NCBI GenBank assembly: GCA_046757885.1
Contig: JBHHZD010000002.1
Span: forward strand, 37,494-101,493
Origin: Gemmatimonadota bacterium
GTDB taxonomy: Bacteria; Gemmatimonadota; Gemmatimonadetes; Palauibacterales; Palauibacteraceae
Direction of reading: 5' to 3'
Length of the DNA stretch: 64,000 bases
Part shown: positions 1-17,192 of the stretch, in pieces
Layout of the letters: the number at the start of each line of letters is the position of its first letter
Position numbering within the stretch: the first letter of the stretch is position 1
Translations under genes and position numbers: made by a program
Notes under the pieces: model-generated
Told to the model about the DNA's origin: nothing
The model's database searches: none
What the model saw: the letters and a program-made list of their open reading frames with translations, nothing else

Positions 1-2
1 GG

Positions 3-617
3 CATCGGGCAACCTACAGCCTCGCTCTCGTCCTGCTGCCGATCTTCGTGATCTGCGAGGTGTTCGCGAGCGACCTCATCACCGTGCTGTTCGGGCCATC
101 CTACGCGGGCGCGGCGCCGATCTTCCGCGTCTACATCCTCATCGTGCCTCTCTCGATTCTCCTCGCGTCGCCGATGCTGCGGGCGACGGCGGATCTGAAG
201 GTGATGTTCGCGGCCGACTCCACCGCCCTGCTCATCACGATCCTCACGCTCGTTCTCCTCGTCGGCACCCTGGGGCCGCTGGGGGCGGTGACGAGCCTTG
301 TGGCGGGCAAGGCCGCTTTCATGCTCTTCGCCTCCCGGCGCACCGCCGCGCGCCTCGAGCTCGGGGCGCGCGAGTTCCTCCCGTGGAAGGGGCTCTTTCT
401 CGTCCTGGCGCTGGCGGCGGGGGCCGCCTTCGGAGGGCTCGCTCTGACCTCGCGCCTCGGTCCGGCGGCGAGACTCCTCGTCGGAGGCGGACTCGCCGGT
501 GCCGCCTACCTTTCCGTCGCCCTGGCGACGGGGCTCGTGCCGGAGCCCGAGCGGGCGCTCCTGCGCCGCGCGCTCAGAGGAAGGCGGGGTCACGCGGGCC
601 CGCGAGACGACGCGTGA
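3..617 (+). CDS. Wzx-like polysaccharide flippase (MOP superfamily), C-terminal part; gene begins upstream of the window
   Basis: Frame 3 is open from position 3 and reads as hydrophobic TM helices (YSLALVLLPIFVICEVF... LFLVLALAAGAAFGGLAL) typical of a flippase C-terminus. Stop TGA at 615-617. Confidence 0.55.
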   Translation, partial: HRATYSLALVLLPIFVICEVFASDLITVLFGPSYAGAAPIFRVYILIVPLSILLASPMLRATADLKVMFAADSTALLITILTLVLLVGTLGPLGAVTSLVAGKAAFMLFASRRTAARLELGAREFLPWKGLFLVLALAAGAAFGGLALTSRLGPAARLLVGGGLAGAAYLSVALATGLVPEPERALLRRALRGRRGHAGPRDDA

Positions 618-1756
618 GCGAGCGTCCCCGCCTGCTCGCGGTTGCGGCCGCGCCTCCGTGGCCGATCCGGCACGGGTACTCGCTTCGCGTCCATCACCTG
701 GTCCGCGAGCTCGCGACGCGCTGGAACCTCCGCCTGGTGGCGCCGCCCGTCGATTCCGGCCACGGGGCGTGGCCGTGCGACGGCGTGCGGCATGTCGAGG
801 TCGGCCTCCGGGCCCGTTGGGCCGGGGTCGCGTTCACGGCCTCCGACCACCCGGCTCTGCGATCCGCGGTTCGACGGCAGGTGGCGGAGTTCGGGCCGCA
901 GGCCGTGCTCCTGTGGAGCGGAACCGAGTGGATGGCTTTCGACCCGCAGTTTCCCGCCGCGGTCGGCGACCGAATCGACTCGGGGACGTTGATCGCCTGG
1001 CGCGACATCCGGGCCGCCGGGACGATGCGTGCCCGCCTCCGCATCGCGCGCCGCGTCCTGCGCTTCGCCCGCTACGAGCGGGACATGGTTCGAGTCCTGG
1101 GGGCCACGATCGCCGTGGCCGAGGACGATGCGCGCGTGCTGGCCCGCCTCGGCGGCCGCCCCGTGGAGGTCGTCGCGAACGGCGTGGCCGTGCCCGAGCA
1201 CAAGCCCGAAGCCGCGGAGGCGGAGACTCCGACCGTCGTGTTCTCGGGCGTGATGAACTACGGGCCGAACGTGGAGGCGGTCCGTCATTTCGTCCGCGAC
1301 GTCTGGCCCCGGGTCCTTGCAGAGCTCCCGGCCGCGACCTTCATCATCGCGGGCCGGGCTCCCACCCGGTCCGTGGGCGCGCTCGCGGACGAGGCGGGTG
1401 TCCGCGTGACGGGAGAGGTCGAGGACATGGGGGTGGTCCTCCGGGAGGCCTGGCTCGCCGTGGCTCCCATGGTGAGCGGCGCCGGCATGAAGAACAAGGT
1501 GCTCGAGGCGTGGGCGGAGGGTCGGCCCGTCGTCCTCTCCCGCCTCGCGGCCCGGGGACTCGCGCTGGACGACGAGACGCGCAGCCTCGTCGCGGCCGAC
1601 GCCGGCCGGATGGCGGACCTCATCGTGCGACTGCTGCGGGATCGGACGGAAAGGATGCGGCGAGGCGAAGCCGGCCGGCGACTCGTCGTGCGCGAGCACG
1701 GATGGGGCGCCGCGGCCGACAGGGTCTCGGAGCTGCTGGAGCGCGTGTGCCTGTGA
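614..1756 (+). CDS. GT4 family glycosyltransferase
   Basis: GTG at 614 overlaps the upstream stop (GTGA). C-terminal GT-B motifs: FSGVMNYGPN, EGxxxxxLEAWAEGRPVV. About 381 aa. Confidence 0.75.
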   Translation: MSERPRLLAVAAAPPWPIRHGYSLRVHHLVRELATRWNLRLVAPPVDSGHGAWPCDGVRHVEVGLRARWAGVAFTASDHPALRSAVRRQVAEFGPQAVLLWSGTEWMAFDPQFPAAVGDRIDSGTLIAWRDIRAAGTMRARLRIARRVLRFARYERDMVRVLGATIAVAEDDARVLARLGGRPVEVVANGVAVPEHKPEAAEAETPTVVFSGVMNYGPNVEAVRHFVRDVWPRVLAELPAATFIIAGRAPTRSVGALADEAGVRVTGEVEDMGVVLREAWLAVAPMVSGAGMKNKVLEAWAEGRPVVLSRLAARGLALDDETRSLVAADAGRMADLIVRLLRDRTERMRRGEAGRRLVVREHGWGAAADRVSELLERVCL

Positions 1757-1791
1757 GCGGGGCGCGGCCCGGAGAGGAGCCGGTGGGGACG

Positions 1792-2769
1792 ATGTGCGGT
1801 CCCGTGTTCGTCGTCGGGGCGCCCCGATCCGGCACGACCCTCGTGTACTCCATCCTGCTGGCTTCCGGGGAGTTCCCCCTGTACCGGGCCGAATCGCGGA
1901 TCGTGGAGTGCTCCACGCGCTACGGGCCGCTGCGGCGGGACGCAAATTTCCGGCGATTCCTGCGGGATTACAGGTCGTCGAGACAGTTTGCCCGGTCGGG
2001 GCTCACGATCCGGGACCTGGAGGCCGCACCCCCCGATAGCCGATCCTCCTACGCCGCGTTCCTCGGCTACTTCATGGGCCTCATCGCGCAGCGCCAGGGC
2101 AGAGGCCGCTGGGCGGAGAAGACGCCGAATCATCTGTTCCACATGTCCGAGCTCGAGGCGGAGTTCCCGGCCGCGCGCTTCATCCACGTGGTCCGGGACG
2201 GCCGGGACGTGGCCCTCTCCCAGCGCCGGCTTCGCATGGACCGGAGCCCGAGCCGCGACCCGGTCATCCGGCTCCTGTGGGCGGGACGGATCTGGGAGCG
2301 GATCGCGCGCGCGGGGAGAAGATCGGGAGCCCGTCTCGGAAAGCGCTACTTGGAGATCCGCTACGAGGACGTCATCGAGGATCTGGACGGCGCCCTCGCC
2401 CGTCTGGCGGACTTCACCGGTCTGGAGCTTTCGCGCGCCGCCGTGGAAGCCAGCGAGGTCGCGGCGCTCGGCGAGGCGAACACCGCCTTCGGCGTGGGCA
2501 TGGGCGGGGTGTCCGCCCGGGCGCTCCAGCGCTGGCGCTCGGCCCTGTCGCCGGAGGAGATCGACGTCCTCCACTGGTCGATCGGCCGGACGCTGCGAGC
2601 GTTCGGGTACGAGGCGGAGGCGGGATCGCCCGGCCGGGGTCCCGTGGCCCTGCGCCGGAAGATCCACCATCACCTGAGCGCATCCGCGATCGGAGGAAAG
2701 CGGTTCCTGAACCGGCACACGCCCCTCGGCCGGCTCGCCAGGAAGCCTCTCGAGATCGGTCTCACCTGA
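1792..2769 (+). CDS. Sulfotransferase (PAPS-dependent)
   Basis: N-terminal 5'-PSB P-loop VVGAPRSGTTL and 3'-PB-like region (FIHVVRDGRDV). Alternative GTG start at 1753 overlaps the upstream stop. Confidence 0.7.
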   Translation: MCGPVFVVGAPRSGTTLVYSILLASGEFPLYRAESRIVECSTRYGPLRRDANFRRFLRDYRSSRQFARSGLTIRDLEAAPPDSRSSYAAFLGYFMGLIAQRQGRGRWAEKTPNHLFHMSELEAEFPAARFIHVVRDGRDVALSQRRLRMDRSPSRDPVIRLLWAGRIWERIARAGRRSGARLGKRYLEIRYEDVIEDLDGALARLADFTGLELSRAAVEASEVAALGEANTAFGVGMGGVSARALQRWRSALSPEEIDVLHWSIGRTLRAFGYEAEAGSPGRGPVALRRKIHHHLSASAIGGKRFLNRHTPLGRLARKPLEIGLT

Positions 2770-2793: not shown

Positions 2794-3897
2794 TCAGCTC
2801 CGTCCCTTCCGGTAGAGCCGCTCGTAGGCGTCGGTCATGACCTCGACGTGGTAGTCGCGCTCCGCCCGCCGGCGCGCCGCCGCGGCGAGGCGGTCTCGAA
2901 GAGCCGGATCTCCGAGCAGCCGGGAGAGAGCGGCCGCGAGATCCCCCGGATCCTGCGGCTCCACGAGAAGGCCTTCGCGATCCGCGCCGACCGCCTCCGG
3001 GATCCCGCCCACACGGGTCGCCACGATCGGCAGGCCCGCGAACATCGCCTCCAGGACAGCCAGGGGCAGGCCTTCCGAGCGCGAGGACATCACGTACACG
3101 TCCGCAGCGGCCATCAGATCGGGGACGTCGTCGCGGTACCCGAGCCATCGCACCCGGGGCGCGAGGCCGAGCCGTCCGGCGAGATCCCGCAGGGCTGCCT
3201 CCTCCTCCCCACGTCCCACGACGGCCAATCGCCAGGGCGCGCTCACCGTCCCGGCGGCCATCGCCAGCGCCCGCAGGAGCACGTCGTATCCCTTCACCGG
3301 GTACAGGTTGCCGACGGCAATCGCGAGGACCTCGTCTTCCCCCAGGCCGAGTGCGGCGCGGGTCTCCATCCGGTCGCCAGGCGCCGGTCGGATCCCGTTC
3401 CGGATGACCTCGATGGCGTCCGCCGGCAGGCCGAGCGAGGTCCGGATCCTCTCCCCCGTCGCCCCGGAGACCGCGACGGCGGCCGCGCTGCGGCGGAACG
3501 CCCAGCGCAGCGCGATGCGGCGCCGGAGGCGGTCCGCGTAGTACGTGCTCCCGTGAAGCGTGATCACGTGCGGGATGCCGACGGCGCGGGCGGCCGACGC
3601 TCCGTACAGGGCCATCGCGAACTCGTGGCTGTGCATCACGTCGATGCCTCGGCGGCGGAGCACCTCGACGAGCCCGCGCCGACAGCCCGGATCGAGGGCG
3701 CGGCGAAGCGTAAACGTCTCCGGGACGAACCCCCGGGAGCGGAACTGCTCGGCGAGCCATCCGCAGCCGTCCGACGGCCCGATGGGACACACCTCGTGCC
3801 CGCGCCGCCGGAGCTCCTCGCCCAGCTCGAGCAGCACGCGCTCCGCGCCGCCCGGTCCGTCGGACTGCAGGGCGAGCGCGATCCCTAGTCCGCTCAT
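2794..3897 (-). CDS. GT4 family glycosyltransferase
   Basis: 367 aa with GT-B features: N-terminal HVITLHGS and C-terminal SRSEGLPLAVLEAMFAGLPIVAT. Confidence 0.8.
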   Translation of the reverse strand: MSGLGIALALQSDGPGGAERVLLELGEELRRRGHEVCPIGPSDGCGWLAEQFRSRGFVPETFTLRRALDPGCRRGLVEVLRRRGIDVMHSHEFAMALYGASAARAVGIPHVITLHGSTYYADRLRRRIALRWAFRRSAAAVAVSGATGERIRTSLGLPADAIEVIRNGIRPAPGDRMETRAALGLGEDEVLAIAVGNLYPVKGYDVLLRALAMAAGTVSAPWRLAVVGRGEEEAALRDLAGRLGLAPRVRWLGYRDDVPDLMAAADVYVMSSRSEGLPLAVLEAMFAGLPIVATRVGGIPEAVGADREGLLVEPQDPGDLAAALSRLLGDPALRDRLAAAARRRAERDYHVEVMTDAYERLYRKGRS

Positions 3898-4955
3898 CGG
3901 GACCGGCCGCGGACCGTTCGCTTCATCACGTGCAGTCCGCGCAGGAGACCCACCGGAAGAAGCGAAGCGAGGAAGATCCCGGCGGCACGGGGACTCCGCC
4001 CGACGCCCTCACGCCAGGCGCGCACGACCGCCCCCCGCGCTTCCAGGCGCTCGAGCTCCGTCAGATGCGCGTAGCCCAGGCGCAGGAGGAGCCGCTCGCG
4101 TCCCCGGCGGTGCGCCTCGGCCTCCCCTGGGGACAGCGGCCGGATGCGCGCGGCGCGATCCACGCTTCGGAGGGCGTTCCGGACGAGCTCGACCGTGCGG
4201 TGCGGCGCGATGAGCGAATCGTATTCCGCCACCCGCCGACCGATGAGCGGCGTCATCAGAACTCCGAGGGAGGCCCGCGCGGCCAGCCGGTGACAGAACT
4301 CCATCTCCTCGGCCACCCGGAAGCCTTCGTCGAACAGCTCGAGGCCGTGTAACGCCCCGGGGGAGATCATGAGGGACGACGGGTACGTGAAGTTGCCGTG
4401 GAAGTACGCCTCGAACGCATCTCCGACGAAAACGCGGTGCTCCCGGCCCGCCGCGCGGAGGATCTCCGCATCGAAGCGCTCCCCAAAGAAGTCGTCGGGA
4501 TCGAGATCGAGATCGCGAAAGATGGGGAACTCCCAACGAAAGCCCTGGCGTCCGCCCCGGACCCGCCCCTGGAGATCGATGACCTCGCAGTTCGTGATCG
4601 ACCAGCCGATCTCCGGATGGACCCGATGCAGGGCGAGCTGGACCTCGAGCTTTTCGGGTCTCCACTCATCGTCGGAGTCGAGAAACGCGAGGCAGACCCC
4701 GCTCGCCTCCCGGATGCCCCGATTCCGGGCGGCCGACACCCCCGCGTTCTCCTGGTGGATGTAGCGGACGACGGCCGGCAGGTCGCGGCACATCTCGCGC
4801 GTGCCGTCGGTCGAGCCGTCGTCCACGATGAGGATCTCATCGGCCGGCCGGGTCTGCGCCAGCACGGACTCGACGGCCCGCCGGAGAAGCTCGACCCGAT
4901 TGTACGTGGGGATGATGACGCTGACTCGCTCGGTTCCCCTCATCGGCCGCGCCAC
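3894..4955 (-). CDS. GT2 family glycosyltransferase
   Basis: VSVIIPTYNR... ILIVDDGSTDGT... LDSDDEW. Its stop overlaps the downstream gene start (ATGA). Confidence 0.8.
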   Translation of the reverse strand: MARPMRGTERVSVIIPTYNRVELLRRAVESVLAQTRPADEILIVDDGSTDGTREMCRDLPAVVRYIHQENAGVSAARNRGIREASGVCLAFLDSDDEWRPEKLEVQLALHRVHPEIGWSITNCEVIDLQGRVRGGRQGFRWEFPIFRDLDLDPDDFFGERFDAEILRAAGREHRVFVGDAFEAYFHGNFTYPSSLMISPGALHGLELFDEGFRVAEEMEFCHRLAARASLGVLMTPLIGRRVAEYDSLIAPHRTVELVRNALRSVDRAARIRPLSPGEAEAHRRGRERLLLRLGYAHLTELERLEARGAVVRAWREGVGRSPRAAGIFLASLLPVGLLRGLHVMKRTVRGRSR

Positions 4956-6136
4956 CAGTCGAGCGTCTCCCGCAAGAAAGGGCGCGGATCCGACATGCGC
5001 AGGATCTCGGCGCGGTCCCGGCCCGGACGGGCCGCCAGAAAGGCGGCCACCGCCCCCAACCTCCCATCCTTCGCCTGCGTCGGCCCGCCGCCCGCGGTGG
5101 TGCCTCGCGTCCTGAGCCTCGCGATCAAGTGGTCGACCTCACCCCAGAACCAGCGGCTGCGGATGCCTGTGCGGTACTCCATGACCGGAGCCGGACGTCC
5201 CCCGGTCGCCGCCTCCACCAGCAGGCGCGGAAAATCCACCCCGGCGTCGATCGCGAGCTGTAGGGATCCCCAGAATCGGCCGTTCACTTCCATGAGCACG
5301 GGAACGCCCGTCGCCCCGTCGACCTTGTACTCGACCATGGCCACGCCCTGCCAGTCGTGGTGTCGCAGGAGCTCCAGGGATTTCTCGAACAGCGCTGGTT
5401 CCAGGGGGATGCTCTCCCGGTTCACGCTCACGCCGCCCGACGGGGGCTTCTCGCGGATTCGCCGGTGCGCGAAGCGGGCCAAGCACGTGTCCTTCCACAG
5501 AAGAAGGAACACCCCGATCCCGGGCCCGGAGATCCTCCGCTGAAGCATCACAGGATAGGCCTCCCGGGGGAGTCGATCGAGCGCCTCGCAAAGGTCGCCT
5601 GGATCCGTCACATGCCGCACGGACAGCTTCCGGGCCCGACCCGAGTCCGTCCGGTGCACGGAGCGGGCCGGCTTGACGACCGCGGGAAACTCGAGTCCCT
5701 CGACCTCGGCCTCATCGGGCTCCGGACCGGTCAGGAGCACCCGCTCCGGCGTCGCGATTCCGATCGCATCGGCCCGGTCGAGCAGCGCGACCTTGTCCGA
5801 GACTCTTCGGAACGCGTCCGGTTCGGGCCCGGGAACGACGACCCCGGAACCGCACGTCCGGCCTTCCTGGATGCTGAGCCAGGCGGCGTCCGTGACCGGA
5901 ACCAGGACGTCCACGCCCCACGCTTTCACGCGCCGCGCGAGCGTTTCGTCGTGCCCCACCGGATCGTCCAGCGGATCCGGCGTGACGGCCACGTCCGACG
6001 CCCACCGGGACGAGCCGGCCAGGCAAGGCGTCCGGCGAGCCGCCACGTACACGCGATGGCCGGCCGCCCCGAGGGACCGGACGATCGCGAGGCTCGCCCG
6101 TTGCTCTCCGTCGGTCACGAGGACGGTGGGCTTCAC
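4940..6136 (-). CDS. ATP-grasp domain protein (carboxylate-amine ligase-like)
   Basis: 398 aa. ATP-grasp-type central region (PAVVKPARS..., MVEYKVD... EVNGRFWGS) and a pre-ATP-grasp N-terminus. Confidence 0.7.
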   Translation of the reverse strand: MKPTVLVTDGEQRASLAIVRSLGAAGHRVYVAARRTPCLAGSSRWASDVAVTPDPLDDPVGHDETLARRVKAWGVDVLVPVTDAAWLSIQEGRTCGSGVVVPGPEPDAFRRVSDKVALLDRADAIGIATPERVLLTGPEPDEAEVEGLEFPAVVKPARSVHRTDSGRARKLSVRHVTDPGDLCEALDRLPREAYPVMLQRRISGPGIGVFLLLWKDTCLARFAHRRIREKPPSGGVSVNRESIPLEPALFEKSLELLRHHDWQGVAMVEYKVDGATGVPVLMEVNGRFWGSLQLAIDAGVDFPRLLVEAATGGRPAPVMEYRTGIRSRWFWGEVDHLIARLRTRGTTAGGGPTQAKDGRLGAVAAFLAARPGRDRAEILRMSDPRPFLRETLDWWRGR

Positions 6137-7059
6137 GCGAGCAGTCCCGCGAGCCTGAGCTCGAGCCCGCGCGGCGAGAGGCCCGCGGGGACGTTCAGGC
6201 GCGGAAGGTCGAGCTCCGCATCACGACGCCGCACGCGCCCTCCGTCGATCCGGAATCCGGCCCGGTAGCCGGCATCTCGCGCCGCCCGGCGGACGGACGG
6301 CGACGACAGGCCGTACGGATAGGAGATCCAGGGCTCCACCTGCGAGTAACGCTCGGCGAGCCAGGCCAGAGGCCGTGCGAGCTCGTCGCCGAGCTCACGG
6401 GGCCCCAGGCGGGTCAGGTTCGGGTGGCTCCAGGTGTGCGAGGCGAGCCGAACCAGGGAACACGAAGCGGCCGCCCGCAGCTCTTCCTCCGTCGCCGACC
6501 TCGCGTGCGATGGGATGGCCGGCTCTCCCTCCGCCGACGTCGGCTCCGTGGTCCCCGGTCCCACGGCGGCCCGGATCTCCGCCTCCCGTCCCCGCCACTG
6601 CCCCAGCGCCCGATCCCTCAGGGACGGCTCCAGGCCGCCCCCCCCCGGCCGGGCGAGCACATCCCACCAGAACGCATGTCGACCGAGGAGGCCCGGAGAC
6701 ACGAACACGGTGACGGGAAGGCCGCGCCGCGCGAGCTCCGCCAGGCCCAGGGTGAGAGCGCCGGAATAGGCGTCGTCGAACGTGAGCGCGACCCGCACCG
6801 GGCCCGCAGCGGCACCCGGATCCTGGATGATCTGCCCGAGATCGACGATGTCCGCTCGATGCTGGAGCACATCGATCAGGGCACGGAAGCGACCGAGCGG
6901 GAGGTGGAGAGAAGCGTCGCCGACGGACGGAACGTCGTCCGGCACGACGTCGTGGAATGCGAGAACGAGCGGCCGCGGCCGGGAGAGGGAGCGGGCGACG
7001 GTCGCGACGCCGAGGCGCACGAGCGCCGCTTCCCCGAGAGCTTTCGGCGTCGTCCTCAT
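6133..7059 (-). CDS. Polysaccharide deacetylase (CE4 family)
   Basis: NodB-like motifs: LTFDDAY..., TVFVSPG..., HTWSHPNL. Confidence 0.7.
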   Translation of the reverse strand: MRTTPKALGEAALVRLGVATVARSLSRPRPLVLAFHDVVPDDVPSVGDASLHLPLGRFRALIDVLQHRADIVDLGQIIQDPGAAAGPVRVALTFDDAYSGALTLGLAELARRGLPVTVFVSPGLLGRHAFWWDVLARPGGGGLEPSLRDRALGQWRGREAEIRAAVGPGTTEPTSAEGEPAIPSHARSATEEELRAAASCSLVRLASHTWSHPNLTRLGPRELGDELARPLAWLAERYSQVEPWISYPYGLSSPSVRRAARDAGYRAGFRIDGGRVRRRDAELDLPRLNVPAGLSPRGLELRLAGLLA

Positions 7060-7069
7060 GCCGGGTGGG

Positions 7070-8452
7070 CTAGCCGCGGGTGCCGGATCTCGCGTTCAGC
7101 TGCCGCCGCCACGCGGGCACCAGCTGAGGGCGGGGCCGGGGGCCCGCAACGCCCCGCCGCCCGCCGACGCCGGGCACCACGAAGGCGGCGGCGTCTTCCC
7201 TCATCCGTCGCTCGACGGACACGTACATCCCGGTCACGAAGGCGGCGAGCATGTAGATCGGGTCGAGATACGCAAAGGACAGAAAGACGCTCGTCGAGAT
7301 GAACCCGATGATGGCGACCGGAAAGTACGTCGTCGCGTGATACAGAAAGCGCTGCTCGGGGTCCCCACGCGCCCAGGTGGTGGGCAATCTCCGTCTCATG
7401 CGCAGCATGCTGAACAGCGAGCCGAACACGAGCGAGGACCAGAGGATCAGGCCGGGGAAGCCGAGCTCTGCCCCGACCTGGAGAAACGAGTTGTGGGCGG
7501 CGCTCCACTTGATGTGCCAGCCCGTTCGATCCTGGAAATCTCTTACCACGGAGGACATCTGGCTCCCCTCCGCGCGAGGGAAGTTGTCGATGCCGATCCC
7601 GAAGAACGGGTGACCCATCATGTACCCGAACCCGCGCTTCGTCACCTCACGCCGGCCGTACTTGGACGTCCAGTTGTAGTCCTCCTTCGGCTTCGTGATC
7701 GTCATCATCTGGTCCCAGTAACCGACGGGCGCCGTCGCGACGAGCGTGATCCCGACGACGAGAAGGAACGCCACCCGCTTCACGACCGAGACGTTCGTGG
7801 CCAGGAACAGGAGCGCCAGGCCGACGGCCACGGCACCGACGAACGCGCCCCGAGAGCCCGTTCGGGCCACGGTCGCCCCGATCGCCCCGAGGACGATCGC
7901 GCAGAAGATCTTGCCCTTCGTCCTCGCGACCTGGAACGCCAGCAGCGTGAGCGGCAGGGCGATCATCAGGATGAGCCCGAGGTCGTTCGCGTCGTACGTG
8001 TAGAGGTGGCTCAGTCGGGCCGCGGCGCCCCCGCGCGGCTTGCTGATCCCGAACACGAAGAGCGCCATCCAGCACAGGATGGCGGCGCTGATGACGTAGG
8101 CCCAGACGAAGCGATACAGGTCCCTTCCGCTGCGGATGGCCGCGATGAGCAGGAAGGCGAGGATGAGCACCTTCGAGTACTCGGTCAGGATGTACATGGC
8201 CGAGCCCCCGATCGAGATCCCGAATGCCGTGGACAGGCAGGCCATCACGGCCAGGGCCACGATGACGCGGGGCGGCCAGAAGCGAAGCAGCTTCCCCGTG
8301 TTCAGCTGTTTCGGGTGCGTCATCGCGTACAGAAGCGTGAGGAGCGCGAGCAGCAGCGCGGGACGCAGGGGGGCCAGAAAGCGAAAGTGCTGATGGATGC
8401 GGCTCACCGTCACGAGAATGAGGAGGAACAGCAGTGCCCGGAGACCATCCAT
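7070..8452 (-). CDS. O-antigen ligase / Wzy-like polytopic membrane protein
   Basis: About 12 predicted TM helices plus a periplasmic loop region (NSFLQVGAELGFPGLILW) typical of the O-antigen ligase (Wzy_C) family. ATG at 8452 (MDGLRALLFLLIL); the ORF is open to an alternative start at 8584. Confidence 0.6.
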   Translation of the reverse strand: MDGLRALLFLLILVTVSRIHQHFRFLAPLRPALLLALLTLLYAMTHPKQLNTGKLLRFWPPRVIVALAVMACLSTAFGISIGGSAMYILTEYSKVLILAFLLIAAIRSGRDLYRFVWAYVISAAILCWMALFVFGISKPRGGAAARLSHLYTYDANDLGLILMIALPLTLLAFQVARTKGKIFCAIVLGAIGATVARTGSRGAFVGAVAVGLALLFLATNVSVVKRVAFLLVVGITLVATAPVGYWDQMMTITKPKEDYNWTSKYGRREVTKRGFGYMMGHPFFGIGIDNFPRAEGSQMSSVVRDFQDRTGWHIKWSAAHNSFLQVGAELGFPGLILWSSLVFGSLFSMLRMRRRLPTTWARGDPEQRFLYHATTYFPVAIIGFISTSVFLSFAYLDPIYMLAAFVTGMYVSVERRMREDAAAFVVPGVGGRRGVAGPRPRPQLVPAWRRQLNARSGTRG

Positions 8453-8957: not shown

Positions 8958-10976
8958 ATGGGTGAGAGGGAAACCGAGGACGGAGTCGAGGCCGGGCGCC
9001 CGGTGGTGGCGGAGCGTACGCTCACGACGGCGGTCGTGGGCGCCGGTCCGATGGCGCAGCACCACCTGAGGGCGATCCTCCGGATTCCACAACGCCCTCG
9101 GGTGCTCGGAGTCGTGGATCCGACGCCGGCGGCCCGCGAGCGTCTGAGGCAGGCGTTTCCCGACCTCGATACGTTCGAGAGCCTGGAGGATCTCCTAGCC
9201 GTGTCCGTCCCGGACGTGCTCCATGTGTGCACGCCGCCCGAGGCCCACGAACGGGCGGCCGAGATGGCCCTGCGGTCGGGCTGCCATGCCTACGTCGAGA
9301 AGCCCGTGTGCGAAACGGCGGCGGGCGCCCGCCGGCTCGTGGACCTCGCCCGGGAGAGAGGCCGGATCCTATGCCCGGGCCACCAGCTCCTGTTCGAGCC
9401 GGCCGCACGTCGTCTCACGGCCCTCGCCGGCACCATCGGCCACCTGCAGCACGTCGAGAGCTACTTCTCGTTCCGAACCGTGCGAACGGCTGCGGGCGGT
9501 CGGACGCCCATCCGGGACGACATGCAGTTGCTCGACGTCCTCCCGCACCCGGTGTACCTGCTCCTTCACTGGCTGGGTGGAGAGTACGGTGAGCCCGCCA
9601 GGATCTCGTCCATCGAGCGCGGGCCCGGCGGGACGATTCACGCCCTGGTCAGCAGGGGGCAGACGACGGGTGTGCTCGTCGTCACCCTGGACGGCAGGCC
9701 TGTCGAAAGCTACGTGCGCCTGGTCGGAACCAACGGGACCCTGCACGCCGACTTCGTGCGCGGGACGGTGCAGCGCCTAGTGGGCCCGGGCGTCTCGACG
9801 ATCGACAAGCTGTTGAATCCCTATCGGCTGGCGCGCCAGCTCGGCTTCGGAACGACGGCGAGCCTGGGGCGGCGGCTCGCGAGGCGACAGCGCAGCTACC
9901 CGGGCCTCGTGGAGATCTTCACGGCCTTCTATCGGGCGGTGCTGGGAAACGGAAGTGCCCCCATCGAGGACGACGAGATCGTCGAGACGGTGGCCCTGTG
10001 TGAGGAGGTGGCGGCCGTGCTCCGGTCTCCGGGGGCCGCGCCATCTCAGGGATTCGCCGGCCGGAAAGATCGCATCCTCGTCACCGGCGGGACGGGCTTC
10101 TTCGGCCGCTCGGTCGTCCAGGCCCTGACGTCGCGCGGTCGCGCGGTGAGGGTCGTGGCCCGCCGATCCCCCCCTCCCTGGGAGCGACTCGCCGGCGTCG
10201 AGTACGTGGAGGCGGATCTCGCGGAAGGAGTTTCGGGCAGGATCCTCGAGGGGTGCGCGCAGGTGATCCACTGCGCCGCGGCGACGAGCGGAGGTTGGGC
10301 GGAGCACCAGCGCAATTCCCTGGACGCGACGGAGAATCTCGTTCGCGCGGCGGCAGCCGCGGGGGTCGGCGACTTCGTCCACGTGAGCAGTCTCGCCGTC
10401 GTCGAGGCCGAGCCGGGTCGTCCTGTCCGGGAGGACTCCCCGTTGCTGTCGGAGGCCCGCGGAAGCGGCCCGTATGCCTGGGGTAAACTGGCGTCGGAGG
10501 AGATCGTGACCCGACTCGGCGCGGAGACGGGGATCCGGACCATCATCTTGAGGCCCGGCGCCATCATCGACTTCGACGATCTCGATCCCCCCGGCCGGCT
10601 GGGCCGGCGGATGGGCAACCTCTTCGTGGCCGTCGGCTCGCGGTCGGAGCCGCTGGGCGTCGTCGATCGGCGCTTCGCGGCCGCGGTCGTGGCGACGGTC
10701 GTCGAGAACCCGGACCGGGCCCCGGCCGTGTTGCACGTTCTGGCTCCCCGTCTCCCCACGAAGCGGGAGCTCGTGGGCCGTCTTCGAGAGCGCAATCCGG
10801 ACCTGAGGGTGGTGTGGCTTCCATGGCTCCTTCTCGGTCCACTCTCCCTCACGGCGTCTCTCCTGCAGCGGATTCTCCGGCCCGGGAGCCCACCCGTGAG
10901 CCTGGTCAGGGTCTTCAGGCGCGAGACCTTCGATACGGAGGCTGTGCGTCGCCTCACCTCCCCGACGACCGGCTAG
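8958..10976 (+). CDS. Fusion protein: Gfo/Idh/MocA-family NAD(P) oxidoreductase (N-terminal) + NAD-dependent epimerase/dehydratase SDR (C-terminal)
   Basis: N-terminal half: Rossmann TAVVGAGPMAQHHL and EKP motif (HAYVEKPVC). C-terminal half: ILVTGGTGFFGRS... YAWGKLASE (YxxxK). 672 aa. Confidence 0.7.
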   Translation: MGERETEDGVEAGRPVVAERTLTTAVVGAGPMAQHHLRAILRIPQRPRVLGVVDPTPAARERLRQAFPDLDTFESLEDLLAVSVPDVLHVCTPPEAHERAAEMALRSGCHAYVEKPVCETAAGARRLVDLARERGRILCPGHQLLFEPAARRLTALAGTIGHLQHVESYFSFRTVRTAAGGRTPIRDDMQLLDVLPHPVYLLLHWLGGEYGEPARISSIERGPGGTIHALVSRGQTTGVLVVTLDGRPVESYVRLVGTNGTLHADFVRGTVQRLVGPGVSTIDKLLNPYRLARQLGFGTTASLGRRLARRQRSYPGLVEIFTAFYRAVLGNGSAPIEDDEIVETVALCEEVAAVLRSPGAAPSQGFAGRKDRILVTGGTGFFGRSVVQALTSRGRAVRVVARRSPPPWERLAGVEYVEADLAEGVSGRILEGCAQVIHCAAATSGGWAEHQRNSLDATENLVRAAAAAGVGDFVHVSSLAVVEAEPGRPVREDSPLLSEARGSGPYAWGKLASEEIVTRLGAETGIRTIILRPGAIIDFDDLDPPGRLGRRMGNLFVAVGSRSEPLGVVDRRFAAAVVATVVENPDRAPAVLHVLAPRLPTKRELVGRLRERNPDLRVVWLPWLLLGPLSLTASLLQRILRPGSPPVSLVRVFRRETFDTEAVRRLTSPTTG

Positions 10977-10996
10977 GCCGGAGGCGAACGGCGTCC

Positions 10997-12190
10997 GTGG
11001 ATCTCCTGCTCGCCGGCATCGTCGGAGTCTTCGCGCTGCTCCTGCTCGCCCCGTGCGTCGTCGACCTCGGAGCCCTCGTGCGGCGGACCCGGCAACGAAG
11101 GAGGAAGGAGGAAGGCGCTCGCTTCACGGGCCTCGAGCGACTCCTGTTCCTCGTCCCCGCCCGAAACGAAGCCGACGTTCTGGACTCGTGCCTGCAGAGC
11201 CTTCTCGAGCTGCGCTACCCCGAGGAACGGAGAGGCATCCTTGTGGTGGCCGACGGGTGTGACGACGACACCGCTGCCGTCGCCCGGAGGTTGGGGGTCC
11301 GCGTCCAAGAGCGCGCGGCGGTGGGAGACGCTGGGAAGGGGGCGGCGATCGGGTGGGCCCTGCGTCACATCGCGCTTCAGGACTGGGATGCCATCGTCGT
11401 CGTCGATGCGGACTCCATCGTCGATCCCGAGTTCGGAATTCGGCTGTCCGCCTGCGGTCCACTCCGCGACAAGGCCCTGCAGGCGACTTTCCTGCCCCGG
11501 AACCCCGCGGATAGCCCGCTCACTCGCATGGCTGAGCTCCTTTCCGTCGTCTACTACGGGCTCCTCTATCCGCTGAAGCGGGCGGGCGGCCTGAACGTGC
11601 CGCTTACGGGGAACGGCATGAGCCTGGGAACGAGTGTACTCGACCGGTTGGGGTGGAAGACCTCCACGCTCTGTGAGGATACGGAGATGTACGTGATCCT
11701 CACTCTGGGCGGCGTCCGGATCTTAACCGCGCCCGGGGCCGTCGTGAGGGCCTACGAGGCGCGAACTCTGCGTGAGAGCGGTGATCAGCGAAGGCGATGG
11801 CGATCGGGACGAATTCGAGTTCTCTCCCGGTATGGCAGGAACGTCCTGCTGCACCGCGACCTGGGACTGCTGCAGAAGGCGGATGTTCTCGCCGAGCTCC
11901 TCCTTCCGGGTCCGGTCGTGCAGGCGTGTTCCGCAGCGGCGCTGGGGTTGCTCGCCGTGCTCGCCGGCCTCCCGGGGAACGGGATCCTGGTCGGTGCGCT
12001 CGCCCTGTCCCCCGCTCGCTTCGCGTTGCTCTGCCTGCTCGCGCTTCGCCGGGTGCCCGAGCCCGCCAGGACGGCTGCTGCGTTACTCCACCTCCCGGCG
12101 TACGCCGCCTGGCGAGTGGGTGCGGAATGGCGGTCCATAGCCCGTCCCGGCGACATCGGGTGGGGTTCTCGGCGGGGCGGCGCGGACTGA
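10997..12190 (+). CDS. Processive GT2 (synthase-like) membrane glycosyltransferase
   Basis: DxD (VVDADS), TED (LCEDTEMYV) and QxxRW (QRRRWRSGR) motifs, flanked by N- and C-terminal TM helices. GTG start at 10997. Confidence 0.7.
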   Translation: MDLLLAGIVGVFALLLLAPCVVDLGALVRRTRQRRRKEEGARFTGLERLLFLVPARNEADVLDSCLQSLLELRYPEERRGILVVADGCDDDTAAVARRLGVRVQERAAVGDAGKGAAIGWALRHIALQDWDAIVVVDADSIVDPEFGIRLSACGPLRDKALQATFLPRNPADSPLTRMAELLSVVYYGLLYPLKRAGGLNVPLTGNGMSLGTSVLDRLGWKTSTLCEDTEMYVILTLGGVRILTAPGAVVRAYEARTLRESGDQRRRWRSGRIRVLSRYGRNVLLHRDLGLLQKADVLAELLLPGPVVQACSAAALGLLAVLAGLPGNGILVGALALSPARFALLCLLALRRVPEPARTAAALLHLPAYAAWRVGAEWRSIARPGDIGWGSRRGGAD

Positions 12191-12217
12191 GCCGGGCCCT
12201 GTAGACCAGGCCCGGCC
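12191..12217. terminator. GC-rich inverted repeat between convergent genes (likely bidirectional terminator hairpin)
   Basis: gccgggccctg-tag-accaggcccggc, a stem of about 10 bp, sitting exactly between the stop codons at 12190 (+) and 12218 (-). Confidence 0.5.
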
Positions 12218-13432
12218 TCACCTCGGGCCCGGCGAGCGCTCGCGGGAGGTCTTCCGCCATTCTCGTTCTCCGCGCCCCAGCAGGGTCCCCCCTGCGACGA
12301 GGACCCGCCAGAGTGCGTAGCCCGGGAGGCGGAGAAAGGCGAGCATGGCGGAACCCGGGCGCGGGTGCCGAAGGAGCACGACGACCACGGCGACGACCTC
12401 GGGCGCCAGGCTGACAAGGGCCAGCACCGCGAGAAGAACCGATAGGCCTCCGTCGAGGAGCCACAACGAAAGCACGCCGGCGATCGTCGCGAGGACCAGG
12501 TGCAGTACGGGACTCGCCCCGCCGAGCTCCGCGAGGCCGTCGATCTTCTGCCGGAAACTCACGTGCGAGCCTAGGAGACGGGGTGTCCAGATCCTGAAGA
12601 CCCGTGAGCGGCCCGCGAGCCAGCGCCTCCGCTGGGTCCTGCCCTGAGCGGGCGTCGCCGCTTCCTCCGACAGCAGACGGGCGCCCGGGACGTAGTCAAT
12701 CTCGATGCCGGCGACGGTGTACTCGGCGTACAGTTCCCAGTTCTCGGTCAGCGAGAACGAGCTCCAGCCCCTCCCGGCGAGCAGGTCGGCCCCGATGCAC
12801 ATTCCGTTTCCCGTCAGGGGACAATTCAGGCCCGCCGCTCGCTTGAGGGGATACCCGACCTCGTATCGCATGCGGGTCAGCAGGCCCGCCAGTCGAGTGA
12901 GCCAGGACTCCCATTCGTTGCGGATGCCGAAGTAGGCCTGGCAGGCCTTGCTCCGAAGTGGAGCCGCCGCGGCGAGAGCGCGTCCGAAGTCGGGTGCGAC
13001 GACAGAGTCGGCATCGAGGATGATGCACGCGTCCCACTCGGAGAGAGGAACCCGCTCGAGCGCCCATGCCAGGGCCCATGGCTTGCCCCGGCGGGAAGGG
13101 TCGTGACGCTCCAGCACCGTCGCTCCGGCCCGTCGGGCCATCTCCGGCGTCCCATCCTCACAGTTGTCCGCCACGACGACGACGCCGACCGCGTCGGACG
13201 GATAATCCAGATCCGTGACGGAGCGGACGCAAGAGTCTATGAGAAGCTCCTCGTCATGCGCCGGAATCAGGAAGAGGAGCCGTGGTGGGGAAGCCGAAGC
13301 TCGTACCTCCGCAGGCTCGGCACGCACGCCACGTCGGAAAGAGAGGACGGACAGGATGACCGAAAGGAGGGGGAGGGACAGATACAGAAGACCGACGGAG
13401 AGAATCAGGGCGACGGGCAGGCTTCCGTTCAC
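12218..13432 (-). CDS. Processive GT2 (synthase-like) membrane glycosyltransferase, paralog of 10997..12190
   Basis: Same architecture as 10997..12190: FLIPAHDEE..., VVADNCEDGT, ILDADS, TENWELY, QRRRWLAGR, with N- and C-terminal TM helices. Confidence 0.75.
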   Translation of the reverse strand: MNGSLPVALILSVGLLYLSLPLLSVILSVLSFRRGVRAEPAEVRASASPPRLLFLIPAHDEELLIDSCVRSVTDLDYPSDAVGVVVVADNCEDGTPEMARRAGATVLERHDPSRRGKPWALAWALERVPLSEWDACIILDADSVVAPDFGRALAAAAPLRSKACQAYFGIRNEWESWLTRLAGLLTRMRYEVGYPLKRAAGLNCPLTGNGMCIGADLLAGRGWSSFSLTENWELYAEYTVAGIEIDYVPGARLLSEEAATPAQGRTQRRRWLAGRSRVFRIWTPRLLGSHVSFRQKIDGLAELGGASPVLHLVLATIAGVLSLWLLDGGLSVLLAVLALVSLAPEVVAVVVVLLRHPRPGSAMLAFLRLPGYALWRVLVAGGTLLGRGEREWRKTSRERSPGPR

Positions 13433-13475: not shown

Positions 13476-14624
13476 TCAGCGACCGCTCACGTAGGCGTGG
13501 TCGATGCGCAGGTACTGATCCTGAGGCACCGTCTGGCCGGTTCCACCCCATACCGCGTCGAACTTCACCACGCTCCATACCTTCGAATCGTTTCCCGTCG
13601 AGAGCTGAACGTTCGAATAGTCGCCGGCCGGGGACCCATCGAGCCAGAAGCGGACGACTCCGTCGCTGTTCGATCCGCTGTTGAATCTGGCGTACACCTC
13701 GATCTGGTGCCAGCTACCTCGGCGGATTCGGCCCGTTCCCCGATTCACGCTGAGGTTCCGGTTGCGGAAGCGCGGGTCCTGGGTCCGTACCTGGAGGGTG
13801 AGCGGCCCGGATTTCGTTCCCTCGGCGATCACGTACAGAGGATTCGACGCGAACCCGGCCTGAGGGATGTAGACCATCTTGTTGACGCCGCTCTTCGGGT
13901 GCCCGTACCAGTTGGACGAAAACTGGATCCAGTAGGAGACGTAGATCTCCTTCCACCGATGACCCCGCACGCTCTTCCCGAAGTGTCTGTAGGGCGACTT
14001 CCCCCCGCCGAAGCCGGCCGGATAGCGGATCTGCAGAACGCTCGGGGCACTGACCGGGGCCGTCGGATCGGAGAGAATCTTCAGGTTGCCGCTCGGATTC
14101 CCGTTGGATCCGTTCCACCACCACCCGTCCTCGATCATGGCATCGAAGGACCGCTCCGTCGCCGGCGTCATCCCCGCCGGCTCGTTCGGGTGCCCCGTAC
14201 TCTGCGACGGCGGCGGGGGCGCGGATGGCGGCGGAGGTTGTGCCGGACTGCTCGCGCTCGAGACCCGGACCGTCGCCTCGTCCCGCAGCACGAGTCCGCT
14301 GCCCTCACCCTGCGCTTCGACCGTCACCTCGGCCGAGCCGGCTCTCCGCCCCTCCGCGAGTCCTCCGGCCGAGACGGTGACGATCTCGGGATCCGTGCTG
14401 CTCCAGGCGAACGTGTAGCCGCTGACGGGTCGACCGCGTTCGTCGCGGACGGATGCCGTGAGCTGGCTGCGCGATCCGGGGGCGAGCACGATGTCCGACG
14501 GCGAGACGACGATGACGGCCGCTGTCGGAGCGCCGGTGGGGGCAGGGGACGGATCCGGCCCCGTGACGCCGGACGCGCCGGACTGACAGGCGAGAAGGGG
14601 AAGCAGCAGGCTGCCGAGACTCAT
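13476..14624 (-). CDS. Secreted lipoprotein with Big_2 (bacterial Ig-like) domain and C-terminal jelly-roll-like domain (possible polysaccharide lyase/hydrolase)
   Basis: ATG at 14624 gives signal peptide plus lipobox MSLGSLLLPLLAC. A Big_2-like segment (VIVVSPSDIVLAPGSRSQLTASVRD... YTFAWSSTDPEIVTV), a Pro-rich linker (PAQPPPPSAPPPPSQS), then a W/Y-rich beta domain of about 220 aa. Confidence 0.6.
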   Translation of the reverse strand: MSLGSLLLPLLACQSGASGVTGPDPSPAPTGAPTAAVIVVSPSDIVLAPGSRSQLTASVRDERGRPVSGYTFAWSSTDPEIVTVSAGGLAEGRRAGSAEVTVEAQGEGSGLVLRDEATVRVSSASSPAQPPPPSAPPPPSQSTGHPNEPAGMTPATERSFDAMIEDGWWWNGSNGNPSGNLKILSDPTAPVSAPSVLQIRYPAGFGGGKSPYRHFGKSVRGHRWKEIYVSYWIQFSSNWYGHPKSGVNKMVYIPQAGFASNPLYVIAEGTKSGPLTLQVRTQDPRFRNRNLSVNRGTGRIRRGSWHQIEVYARFNSGSNSDGVVRFWLDGSPAGDYSNVQLSTGNDSKVWSVVKFDAVWGGTGQTVPQDQYLRIDHAYVSGR

Positions 14625-16208: not shown

Positions 16209-17192
16209 CTACCCGTTCCGTCCGGTCTCGGCCCCGTACCCGAGGCGGCTCGCCACGGGCTCGACGGCGCGTCGGAGGATCCTCCGCTCCGAGCGGGGGA
16301 TCGGGTCCAGAGCTCCCCGCGCCCGGCCGGGTACGCGGCGGTCGAGCACGCCGCGGTCCAGCTCCAGCTCCAGGAAATTCTCCAGCGTCTCGACCGGGAG
16401 ACGGCCGGAGCACAGGTCCTCGTAGGGCACCAGGAGTCCGCCCACCGCCTCCGCGCCGGAGAGGAACCCCTCGACCAGGGCCCGCCAGTGTCTCCCGAAG
16501 TGACCCGGTGTCAGGACGGGCTGCGCGGGCCATCGGTCGTACCAGTTCCGGAAGACCCGGTAGGACCGATAGGCACGGTACGGGTTCCGGTACAGGAACA
16601 GGAACCGGGCCTCGGGGAAGAGCCACCGGAGCCAGGCGGCGTGATCGATGTCGAGCCGCACCTCCTTCAGGCCCCAGCGCGGATACCCTTCCCTCTCGGC
16701 GGGCGTGGCGAACAGACTCATCATGAAGGCCCGGTGCGCCCTCAGCACGTGGACCGGATGCGGATACAGGTTCGCGATCCACTCCCGGCTCGCCTCGGTC
16801 GCCTCGCGTGCCTTGAGGTCCTCCAGGAAGAAGTGATCCGGGGGATCGCCGGGACGGAACGCTCTCAGGGATTCGGCGAGGCGGCGTATGAAGTCGGAAT
16901 GGGCGAACGGCTCGCCCCAGATCATCACGCCCTCCGCCGAGGTGATGAGCCGCTGGAGGAGGGTGGAGCCGGACCTCCAGCCCGCGGACAGGATGAAGAT
17001 CGGACGGTCCGGCGGGGCGTCTGCCGGCATCTCCCAGCGGCTCTCGATGATCTCTATGGCCTCCGGGATGCTGGGCACCGACCTCAGCAGCTTCCGGTGG
17101 CGGCGCCGGTGCACGATCGCCCCGGTCCGCGCCTCGATGGGCACCTTCACGGGCCTGCCCAGCCGCTTGAGCCGTTCCTTCCAGTTCCTCAT
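16209..17192 (-). CDS. Sulfotransferase (second copy)
   Basis: PAPS-binding P-loop ILSAGWRSGSTLL. ATG at 17192 (MRNWKERLKRL); an alternative upstream ATG at 17285. Confidence 0.65.
   Translation of the reverse strand: MRNWKERLKRLGRPVKVPIEARTGAIVHRRRHRKLLRSVPSIPEAIEIIESRWEMPADAPPDRPIFILSAGWRSGSTLLQRLITSAEGVMIWGEPFAHSDFIRRLAESLRAFRPGDPPDHFFLEDLKAREATEASREWIANLYPHPVHVLRAHRAFMMSLFATPAEREGYPRWGLKEVRLDIDHAAWLRWLFPEARFLFLYRNPYRAYRSYRVFRNWYDRWPAQPVLTPGHFGRHWRALVEGFLSGAEAVGGLLVPYEDLCSGRLPVETLENFLELELDRGVLDRRVPGRARGALDPIPRSERRILRRAVEPVASRLGYGAETGRNG

Follow-up and report, generated by a model that had tools for sequence, protein, structure and literature searches.

Two predicted PAPS-dependent sulfotransferases in a Wzy-type glycan locus of a Gemmatimonadota bacterium

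Why would a glycan locus carry two sulfotransferase-like genes, and what would their products sulfate? We analyzed a 64-kb stretch of the Gemmatimonadota bacterium contig JBHHZD010000002.1 (assembly GCA_046757885.1; hereafter the window), in which two such genes, ST1 and ST2, lie 13.4 kb apart in opposite-strand operons. Conserved motifs, profile scores and predicted folds make it very probable that both proteins are sulfotransferases dependent on 3′-phosphoadenosine-5′-phosphosulfate (PAPS). Their acceptor is likely to be the glycan made by this locus. With moderate confidence we favor the fuller proposal that ST1 and ST2 sulfate sugars of the polymer of the surrounding Wzy-type locus (~600–21,000) on its lipid-linked unit. 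That the cell makes a sulfated surface or slime polysaccharide is plausible and probably the case.

ST1 and ST2 have the composition of real genes. Window G+C is ~71%, at which long spurious open reading frames (ORFs) are frequent, so we called genes by G+C content at third codon positions (GC3) and obtained 54. Pfam scans covered all 54 called genes and NCBIfam scans covered 20 window proteins. Read from ATG 1792, the ST1 ORF is stop-free over 325 aa and contains GAPRSGTTL; the ST2 ORF encodes 327 aa and contains SAGWRSGSTL. Their GC3 values, 0.88 and 0.90 respectively, are typical of real genes at this base composition. NCBI starts ST1 at GTG 1753, which gives 338 aa and overlaps the stop of the upstream glycosyltransferase (GT) gene (GTGA); ATG 1792 is an alternative, and the sulfotransferase domain is intact with either start. 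A six-frame scan with hidden Markov models (HMMs) of both families and the motif [RK][ST]G[ST]T identified only these two ORFs as sulfotransferase-like, and no third sulfotransferase or pseudogene remnant like those in the related loci L004 and L087 (compared loci carry L numbers). At 100% identity, NCBI already names both proteins 'MAG: sulfotransferase [Gemmatimonadota bacterium]' (MAG, metagenome-assembled genome), encoded on a contig of 109,819 bp. Neither matches any NCBIfam model, and so neither has a curated subfamily name.

Both proteins fall in the Sulfotransfer_3 family (PF13469) and conserve PAPS-binding motifs. The gathering cutoff is 27 bits; ST1 reaches 111.4 (E = 9.5e-32) and ST2 53.4 (E = 5.3e-14), values that chance does not explain, and ST1 also matches Sulfotransfer_1 (E = 1.3e-10). 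The initial annotation had proposed two PAPS-type sulfotransferases here and suggested a Sulfotransfer_1/3 HMM check, and the scores from that check, the invariant motifs and the fold all uphold the proposal. We aligned ST1 with 33 homologs (77–33% identity, n = 34, numbered from ATG 1792) and ST2 with 35 (80–42% identity, n = 36). The 5′-phosphosulfate-binding loop, noted earlier as RSGST/RSGTT in both proteins, is RSGTT in ST1 and RSGST in ST2, with Arg, Gly and Thr invariant throughout both alignments. All 34 ST1-family sequences keep R12, S13, G14 and T15 of this loop; H132, R135, D136, G137, R138 and S143 at the 3′-phosphate-binding motif; and E34, P112, R247 and W248. All 36 ST2-family sequences keep W72, R73, G75, S76 and T77 at the loop; R202, P204 and S210 in the 3′-phosphate-binding motif; and W92, G93, E94, W173, G174 and K176. 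Profile searches of the PDB aligned the ST1 loop to PRSGTT of tyrosylprotein sulfotransferase (TPST) 1 and PRSGST of the olefin synthase sulfotransferase (OLS ST). The ST1 3′-phosphate-binding motif aligned to VRDGRASVHS of TPST1, and that of ST2 to the same region of OLS ST, CurM ST and TPST1.

Candidate catalytic residues are conserved to different degrees in the two families. An invariant Glu stands 21–22 residues past the P-loop Arg in both (ST1 E34, ST2 E94), and in the PDB profile search E34 falls on the PPELH Glu of OLS ST. In ST2, R73, E94 and K176 are spaced like Arg78, Glu99 and Lys158 of human TPST2 and, by this spacing and the TPST2 sequence, are their putative equivalents. Human TPST2 needs these three residues for catalysis (PMC10951654). 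The candidate catalytic Lys of ST1, K110, is Lys in just 16 of 34 homologs.

Predicted structures place both proteins in the sulfotransferase fold. AlphaFold 2 (AF2) models scored 93.2 for ST1 and 90.2 for ST2 in predicted local distance difference test (pLDDT), and 0.91 and 0.88 in predicted template modeling (pTM); both 5′-phosphosulfate-binding loops sit after a predicted β-strand and before a helix. Foldseek searches of the PDB returned 30 matches for ST1 and 18 for ST2 at E ≤ 0.001, all sulfotransferase-family structures. TPSTs (for ST1, TPST1/2), CurM ST and OLS ST lead both lists, and the ST1 list also holds Stf1/Stf9 and heparan sulfate 3-O-sulfotransferase (HS 3-OST). Match probability was 1.00 to TPSTs, CurM ST, OLS ST, Stf1/9 and HS 3-OST. 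In the ST2 list, nucleotide kinases such as guanylate and adenylate kinase come much lower (E > 1e-3, TM-score ~0.3), and conservation of the 3′-phosphate-binding motif and the Glu in both proteins rules out unrelated P-loop enzymes.

Acceptor identity is where solved relatives part from ST1 and ST2. Solved PF13469 sulfotransferases (TPST1/2, CurM ST 4gbm, OLS ST 4gox, Stf1/Stf9) share the fold, the PRSG(S/T)T loop, the RDGR...S motif and the Glu past the P-loop. They are only ~16–21% identical and act on protein Tyr, β-hydroxyacyl-acyl carrier protein (ACP) or glycolipids; ST2 has in addition an N-terminal extension of ~60 residues, basic and helical, that is conserved across its clade. Neither ST1 nor ST2 has a hydrophobic or transmembrane segment (maximum Kyte–Doolittle score over 19 residues ~1.4), in keeping with a place in the cytoplasm, the site of PAPS synthesis. 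The two are 27% identical over ~228 residues and are distant paralogs from different Sulfotransfer_3 subfamilies, so two acceptor positions can reasonably be proposed. Database relatives exceed 1,290 for ST1, some of whose JGI homologs are auto-labeled 'LPS sulfotransferase NodH', and 1,388 for ST2.

The surrounding genes point to a glycan acceptor. Between ~600 and ~21,000, Pfam and NCBIfam tie all genes to glycans; each encodes a GT, a sugar-modifying enzyme or a Wzy-like protein (Table 1). ST1 is the final gene of a plus-strand operon and is translationally coupled to the preceding GT, whose best NCBIfam match is TIGR03087 stp1 of PEP-CTERM/XrtA systems (175 bits, cutoff 317). ST2 lies in a minus-strand run of two GT2 genes, deacetylase, FemAB, ST2 and DegT, in line with the earlier assignment of the two sulfotransferases to separate operons. 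Between them, the operon convergent on ST1 encodes a Wzy_C protein that scores 85.7 bits against TIGR03097, an exosortase A-associated putative O-glycosylation ligase (cutoff 188). Orthologs of the genes that follow it, the GFO/MocA–SDR fusion and the GT2 genes at 8958..13432, occur in L004, L087, L013 and L014. A promoter and terminator scan of positions 1–20,000 gave counts no higher than in shuffled sequence.

The Pfam match of the DegT protein spans the N-terminal half alone (model ~23–189 of 360); its ORF is 375–401 aa long and the C-terminal half is divergent. The lyase-like end of the Big_2 protein hints at uronic acids in the polymer, and the position that this protein occupies between the sulfotransferase operons holds much larger Big_2/fn3 proteins in L002, L004 and L087.

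Table 1. Features of the window and of compared loci
Feature	Coordinates	Strand	Basis or remark
GT1/GT4-type glycosyltransferase upstream of ST1	614..1756	+	Glyco_trans_1_4, E = 1.6e-23
ST1, Sulfotransfer_3/Sulfotransfer_1 sulfotransferase	1753..2769	+	Pfam, AF2, Foldseek; NCBI MFQ5745721.1; ORF from ATG, 1792..2769
ST1 5′-phosphosulfate-binding loop R12-S13-G14-T15-T16	1825..1839	+	alignment and PDB profile search
ST1 3′-phosphate-binding motif R135-D-G-R-D-V-A-L-S143	2194..2220	+	alignment and PDB profile search
Operon convergent on ST1	2794..8452	-	Pfam, NCBIfam
GT4	2794-3897	-	
GT2	3894-4955	-	
ATP-grasp	4940-6136	-	
Polysaccharide deacetylase	6133-7059	-	
Wzy-like polymerase/ligase (Wzy_C)	7070-8452	-	between the two sulfotransferases
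GFO_IDH_MocA + SDR epimerase fusion	8958-10976	+	
GT2	10997-12190	+	
GT2	12218-13432	-	
Big_2 domain protein, polysaccharide-lyase-like C-terminus	13476..14624	-	PL14 / Polysacc_lyase
DegT/DnrJ/EryC1-family sugar aminotransferase	15000..16205	-	directly downstream of ST2; start 16205 or 16127
ST2, Sulfotransfer_3 sulfotransferase, 327 aa	16209..17192	-	Pfam, AF2, Foldseek; NCBI MFQ5745732.1
ST2 3′-phosphate-binding motif R202-N-P-Y-R-A-Y-R-S210	16563..16589	-	alignment and PDB profile search
ST2 5′-phosphosulfate-binding loop R73-S74-G75-S76-T77	16962..16976	-	alignment
FemAB-family XrtA/PEP-CTERM system-associated protein	17200..18222	-	TIGR03019, 297.8 bits (cutoff 260.35); Acetyltransf_6
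XrtA-system polysaccharide deacetylase	18219..19106	-	TIGR03006, 345.5 bits (cutoff 276.2); Polysacc_deac_1 + DUF3473
Two GT2 glycosyltransferases, head of ST2 operon	19103..20997	-	
LPG_synthase_TM-family membrane protein	22801-23775	+	
GT2, two small membrane proteins, UbiA prenyltransferase, MOP flippase	39838-43914	+	
MOP/Wzx-type flippase	42523..43914	+	Pfam, NCBIfam; sole one in the window
Five-gene module	44098-50955	+	
VTC-domain protein	44098-44826	+	
DUF4956/MgtC-like membrane protein	44860-45555	+	
TPR protein	45572-46690	+	
CotH-kinase protein with right-handed beta-helix	46680-49862	+	1060 aa
Calcineurin-like phosphoesterase	49843-50955	+	
Radical SAM/SPASM-domain protein	50965-52146	-	
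GT-C/PMT_2-type and LIC_10190-family membrane proteins	52204-53700	-	four GT-C/PMT_2-type and one LIC_10190-family, with the next region
As above	57038-64000		
LPG_synthase_TM-family membrane protein	55117-57041	-	
Sulfotransfer_3 fragment	L004 4220-4705	-	161 aa
Weak Sulfotransfer_2 match	L087 2954-3682	-	
APS kinase	L076 4857-5420	-	Solirubrobacteraceae MAG
APS kinase	L080 5398-5850	+	Nitrospira MAG

These genes suggest a route to a sulfated polymer. At the inner membrane face, undecaprenyl phosphate would carry the repeat unit that GTs assemble. Amino sugars of this unit would be made or remodeled by the DegT protein, the GFO/MocA oxidoreductase, the two deacetylases, the ATP-grasp ligase and the FemAB-like transferase. 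Soluble cytoplasmic ST1 and ST2 would then transfer sulfate from PAPS, O-linked (or N-linked), each to a different acceptor position of the lipid-linked unit. The sulfated unit would be flipped and polymerized by the Wzy-like protein, yielding a polyanionic sulfated polysaccharide at the cell surface or outside the cell. From the genes we infer the acceptor, the timing on the lipid carrier, the action of both enzymes on the same polymer, release as exopolysaccharide (EPS) and the availability of PAPS.

ST1 and ST2 each recur in similar company in relatives. Scanning one genome per GTDB species, we found ST2 relatives in at least 288 species genomes (best match 53% identity) and compared the neighborhoods of the best 80 of the 288 loci. 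A deacetylase–FemAB–ST2/DegT module is kept in six other Gemmatimonadota genomes, with variable ST2/DegT order; DegT adjoins ST2 in all six loci and the deacetylase lies one to two genes from ST2. Past the module, GCA_046757845.1 carries genes for Big_2, GT2, Wzy, deacetylase, ATP-grasp and GT4 in exactly the window order. ST1 orthologs (51–58% identity) adjoin ATP-grasp/deacetylase/Wzy genes on the metagenomic contigs L004 and L088, and a third metagenomic contig carries one beside Big_2, lyase-like, GT2, GFO-epimerase and Wzy genes. Because both neighborhoods recur, ST1 and ST2 are conserved parts of one locus type. Sulfotransferase number varies among these loci, and the additional copies in L004 and L087, one of them a fragment, adjoin the Big_2 protein.

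The ST2 clade reaches far beyond Gemmatimonadota. It spans this phylum, Beta- and Gammaproteobacteria, cyanobacteria, Acidobacteriota and Nitrospira, and comprises 316 clusters (50% identity) at E ≤ 1e-30 and 629 at E ≤ 1e-10 among 1.84 billion cluster representatives. The best 80 loci include Gemmatimonadota, Thiobacillus, Thauera, Nitrotoga, Rubrivivax, Methylocaldum, Microcoleus/Oscillatoria, Vicinamibacteria and Nitrospira. Outside Gemmatimonadota the clade loses its XrtA-type neighbors and stays among GT2/GT4/Wzy genes. FemAB, the TIGR03006-like deacetylase and DegT are essentially restricted to Gemmatimonadota (6 of 80 loci), and we rejected a general tie between the ST2 clade and XrtA-type genes. 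In Beta- and Gammaproteobacteria, L003, L037, L054, L072 and ~35 further ST2-clade loci combine FG-GAP/UnbV_ASPIC, squalene-hopene-cyclase-C-like, UDP-GlcNAc 2-epimerase, GT4/GT2 and Wzy genes, a conserved polysaccharide locus type for which we found no description. A gene for adenosine-5′-phosphosulfate (APS) kinase lies within 5 kb of the ST2 homolog in L076 and L080 (Pfam APS_kinase, E ~1e-63), which links the clade to PAPS supply. With these 2 of 80 loci as the only cases, we rejected common adjacency of PAPS genes to the ST2 clade.

The nearest validated system is cyanobacterial. The synechan (xss) cluster of Synechocystis sp. PCC 6803 makes a genetically validated sulfated EPS and encodes the sulfotransferases XssA and XssE (PMC8205485). 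ST1 matches a sulfotransferase on the Synechocystis plasmid pSYSM that by position is XssE, flanked by GTs, a Wzy-like gene and a flippase. XssE is matched from end to end by an HMM of the ST1 family (E = 1.4e-32), at 25.6% pairwise identity; this is relatedness at the subfamily level, not orthology. ST2 matches XssE weakly (E = 3e-12), and neither protein has meaningful similarity to XssA. Both clusters are of Wzx/Wzy type, with many GTs and two sulfotransferases of distinct subfamilies (PMC8205485). They differ in phylum and in evidence, sulfate being proven in synechan and predicted here from the genes. The XrtA-type deacetylase and FemAB, the ATP-grasp protein and DegT are present here and absent from the listed xss genes (PMC8205485). 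Regulators of the XssS/XssR/XssQ type have no counterpart among the 54 window genes, where Pfam finds no HisKA, Response_reg or STAND-type domain.

Other published clusters resemble this locus in parts. Pontiella sulfatireligans F21 carries a putative cluster for a sulfated EPS resembling glycosaminoglycans (GAGs), and its exopolymer is reported to be 75–80% N-sulfated (PMC7356697). There a PF13469 sulfotransferase adjoins a DegT-family transaminase (vioA) among GT2/GT4 genes, as ST2 adjoins DegT here (PMC7356697). The likeness is one of gene arrangement; Pontiella belongs to Verrucomicrobiota/Kiritimatiellae, and XrtA-type genes are unreported in its cluster. The wps-1 cluster of Actinoplanes missouriensis is of Wzx/Wzy type with two sulfotransferases, and its authors infer a sulfated EPS without chemical proof; deletions give a developmental phenotype (PMC13390465). 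Its two sulfotransferases likewise come from different families and led to the same inference (PMC13390465). Unlike our bacterium, Actinoplanes is Gram-positive, and its enzymes are Gal/GlcNAc/GalNAc sulfotransferase-like and heparan sulfate sulfotransferase-like by InterPro. Vibrio sp. KMM 8419 has a chemically proven sulfated capsular polysaccharide (CPS) and sulfotransferases inside its cluster (PMC11641403), which differs in using ABC-transporter (Kps) export and in holding a second cysNDC copy; the window has no PAPS genes.

The ST2 operon also shares genes with XrtA/PEP-CTERM systems. Its deacetylase and FemAB protein pass equivalog cutoffs, and the GT coupled to ST1 resembles stp1 below cutoff. 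Unlike those systems, the window lacks genes for an exosortase, an EpsI amidotransferase, chain-length/tyrosine-kinase proteins and OPX proteins. Exosortase_EpsH has no Pfam match among the called window genes and no match among the 20 NCBIfam-scanned proteins, and may lie outside the window. In the literature searched a sulfotransferase is not described as an XrtA/PEP-CTERM component, and the sole paper naming both PEP-CTERM and a sulfotransferase mentions each once, outside title and abstract.

A rhizobial comparison, made in the initial annotation, proved weak. Rhizobial NodH, LpsS and KpsS carry out PAPS-dependent sulfation of lipo-chitooligosaccharide, lipopolysaccharide (LPS) and K-antigen, with the PAPS genes nodPQ present alongside nodH. 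In tblastn searches of 72,556 plasmid records, ST1 and ST2 had no match in Sinorhizobium, Rhizobium or Mesorhizobium at E ≤ 1e-3; we set a NodH-like relationship aside on this result, which assumes, unconfirmed, that nodH plasmids are in the collection.

The earlier suggestion of a sulfated bacterial EPS keeps its core, genuine sulfotransferases in glycan operons of conserved architecture; its premise of rarity is overstated. Sulfated polysaccharides or predicted clusters have been published for Vibrio, Cobetia, Pontiella, Actinoplanes and granular-sludge communities, and the ST2 clade alone occurs in the hundreds of species counted above. Recent papers still call the production of sulfated polysaccharides essentially cyanobacterial (PMC8205485, PMC13390465). 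Already known were the sulfotransferase annotation of both genes, the argument from cluster to sulfated polymer and two-sulfotransferase clusters elsewhere. New here is a two-sulfotransferase polysaccharide cluster in Gemmatimonadota, where none had been described, combined with XrtA-type modification genes. Our literature search found no substantive link between Gemmatimonadota and sulfotransferases, just incidental single mentions.

Several observations weigh against sulfation of the locus polymer by both enzymes. Neither the ST1 nor the ST2 clade has a biochemically characterized member. The 64 kb hold no gene for PAPS synthesis (APS_kinase, ATP-sulfurylase, CysD/N), for PAPS reductase or for 3′-phosphoadenosine-5′-phosphate (PAP) phosphatase, and co-located cysNDC is treated as a hallmark of sulfated-CPS clusters (PMC11641403). 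Also missing from the window are an initiating phosphoglycosyltransferase, a Wza/Wzc exporter (polysaccharide co-polymerase and outer-membrane polysaccharide export proteins, PCP/OPX) and an exosortase; the distinction between EPS and another glycan is therefore not established. XssE is the validated protein closest to ST1, and its deletion changed synechan accumulation and bloom formation little (PMC8205485). Finally, the other Gemmatimonadota loci showed no ST1 up to 10 kb from ST2; the two may be paired in this genome alone, or ST1 may lie just beyond these flanks elsewhere.

A glycan other than released EPS is the strongest competing product, although we consider it rather unlikely. The acceptor would then be LPS O-antigen or core, capsule, or the glycan of glycosylated surface proteins such as PEP-CTERM proteins, and the sole nearby polymerase-like gene is indeed of the Wzy_C/O-antigen-ligase family and TIGR03097-like, below cutoff. 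The absence of a Wza/Wzc exporter from the window fits such a product, as does its wealth of GT-C/PMT_2 and LPG_synthase_TM/GT2 modules, of the kind that commonly decorates glycans in the periplasm. Sulfated LPS and capsule have precedents in rhizobial LpsS and KpsS. Against it, the equivalog matches to TIGR03006 and TIGR03019 mark XrtA-type EPS/biofilm loci, and a polysaccharide-lyase-like protein is more typical of EPS turnover. The synechan (PMC8205485) and Actinoplanes wps-1 (PMC13390465) precedents are likewise EPS.

A lipid or small molecule is a very unlikely acceptor. ST1 and ST2 would then act like mycobacterial Stf enzymes on a sulfoglycolipid, or like CurM/OLS on a polyketide or olefin intermediate, and their location among glycan genes would be incidental. 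The best PDB sequence match is the OLS/CurM ST domain, Stf1/Stf9 are matched too, and a 47%-identical ST1 relative (L005) lies outside any glycan cluster. Set against this, no polyketide synthase, ACP or lipid-synthesis partner adjoins ST1 or ST2 in the window. The start/stop overlap ties ST1 to a GT, ST2 is embedded in a GT/deacetylase/aminotransferase operon, and closer orthologs keep this context.

It is just as improbable that the genes are intact but idle for want of PAPS, for example in a cell that assimilates sulfate through APS and has no APS kinase. The complete lack of PAPS genes in the 64 kb would suit such a cell. PAPS genes usually lie elsewhere on the chromosome, however, and the listed xss genes also include none for PAPS synthesis, the word 'PAPS' being absent from the text of that paper (PMC8205485). 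PAPS-binding and catalytic residues are strictly conserved down to ~35–45% identity, implying purifying selection on PAPS use, and coding GC3 is high with no frameshifts.

Least likely of all is RaxST/TPST-like tyrosine sulfation of a secreted peptide or protein. Animal TPSTs are the top structural and profile matches, yet at ~20% identity and TM-scores of ~0.5–0.6 they equal the CurM/OLS small-molecule enzymes, which reflects their common place in PF13469 and the small number of structures solved for this family. ST1 and ST2 have no signal peptides or transmembrane anchors, we saw neither a RaxA/B-type exporter nor a gene for a candidate Tyr-rich peptide, and the neighbors conserved across phyla are GTs and sugar-modifying enzymes.

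Within the favored reading, sulfation of the locus glycan, ST2 might attach sulfate to nitrogen, having been drawn with DegT into the XrtA-type deacetylase/FemAB module in Gemmatimonadota. It would then N-sulfate a free sugar amine left by transamination or de-N-acetylation, forming a sulfamate and a GAG-like N-sulfated EPS, and its clade would supply the missing sulfation enzymes of sludge and biofilm EPS; we regard this as doubtful. Such an enzyme would be a bacterial functional analog of heparan-sulfate N-deacetylase/N-sulfotransferase, an equally speculative idea. The ST2–DegT–deacetylase module could signify N-sulfation, given its proximity in 6 of 6 Gemmatimonadota loci and the same sulfotransferase/transaminase adjacency in N-sulfated Pontiella (PMC7356697). 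Against this, DegT or deacetylase genes are rarely near the ST2 clade outside Gemmatimonadota. We found no sequence feature that tells N- from O-sulfation.

If the polymer is sulfated, the trait would extend to Gemmatimonadota, which are widespread in soil and sediment and have few cultured representatives. The most useful lead is the ST2 clade itself, which is compact, conserved and uncharacterized, and lies among GT2/GT4/Wzy-type polysaccharide genes across the 80 loci compared. Sulfated glycoconjugates are chemically common in granular-sludge EPS, and the responsible sulfotransferases are unidentified (PMC10483923). Its breadth and glycan context therefore make the ST2 clade a concrete candidate for the EPS sulfotransferases of wastewater granules and biofilms (PMC10483923). 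Biotechnology, too, takes an interest in such enzymes, for making sulfated polysaccharides in microbes (PMC11641403). Existing concepts stand unchallenged, and the outcome is a set of candidates for experiments.

The other 43 kb of the window hold further glycan genes, including GTs, epimerases, methyltransferases, the MOP flippase, a UbiA prenyltransferase, GT-C/PMT_2 proteins and a VTC/DUF4956/CotH module. The flippase lies 25 kb from ST2, and its link to the sulfotransferase polymer is uncertain. Its two small membrane-protein neighbors have weak holin_4-like matches below cutoff and are possibly GtrA-like. Together with the GT-C/PMT_2-type and LIC_10190-family membrane proteins, the genes of the flippase region resemble a pathway in which polyprenyl-phosphate-sugar donors serve GT-C glycosylation in the periplasm, and may form a second glycan system. 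One of the two LPG_synthase_TM-family proteins precedes a GT4 gene and the other pairs with a GT2 and a PMT_2 protein; an LPG_synthase_TM and PMT pairing also flanks the ST2 module in L002. The five-gene module that begins with the VTC-domain protein lies inside the glycan region. SPASM enzymes usually mature peptides or cofactors, and here a radical SAM/SPASM-domain protein is encoded among glycan genes.

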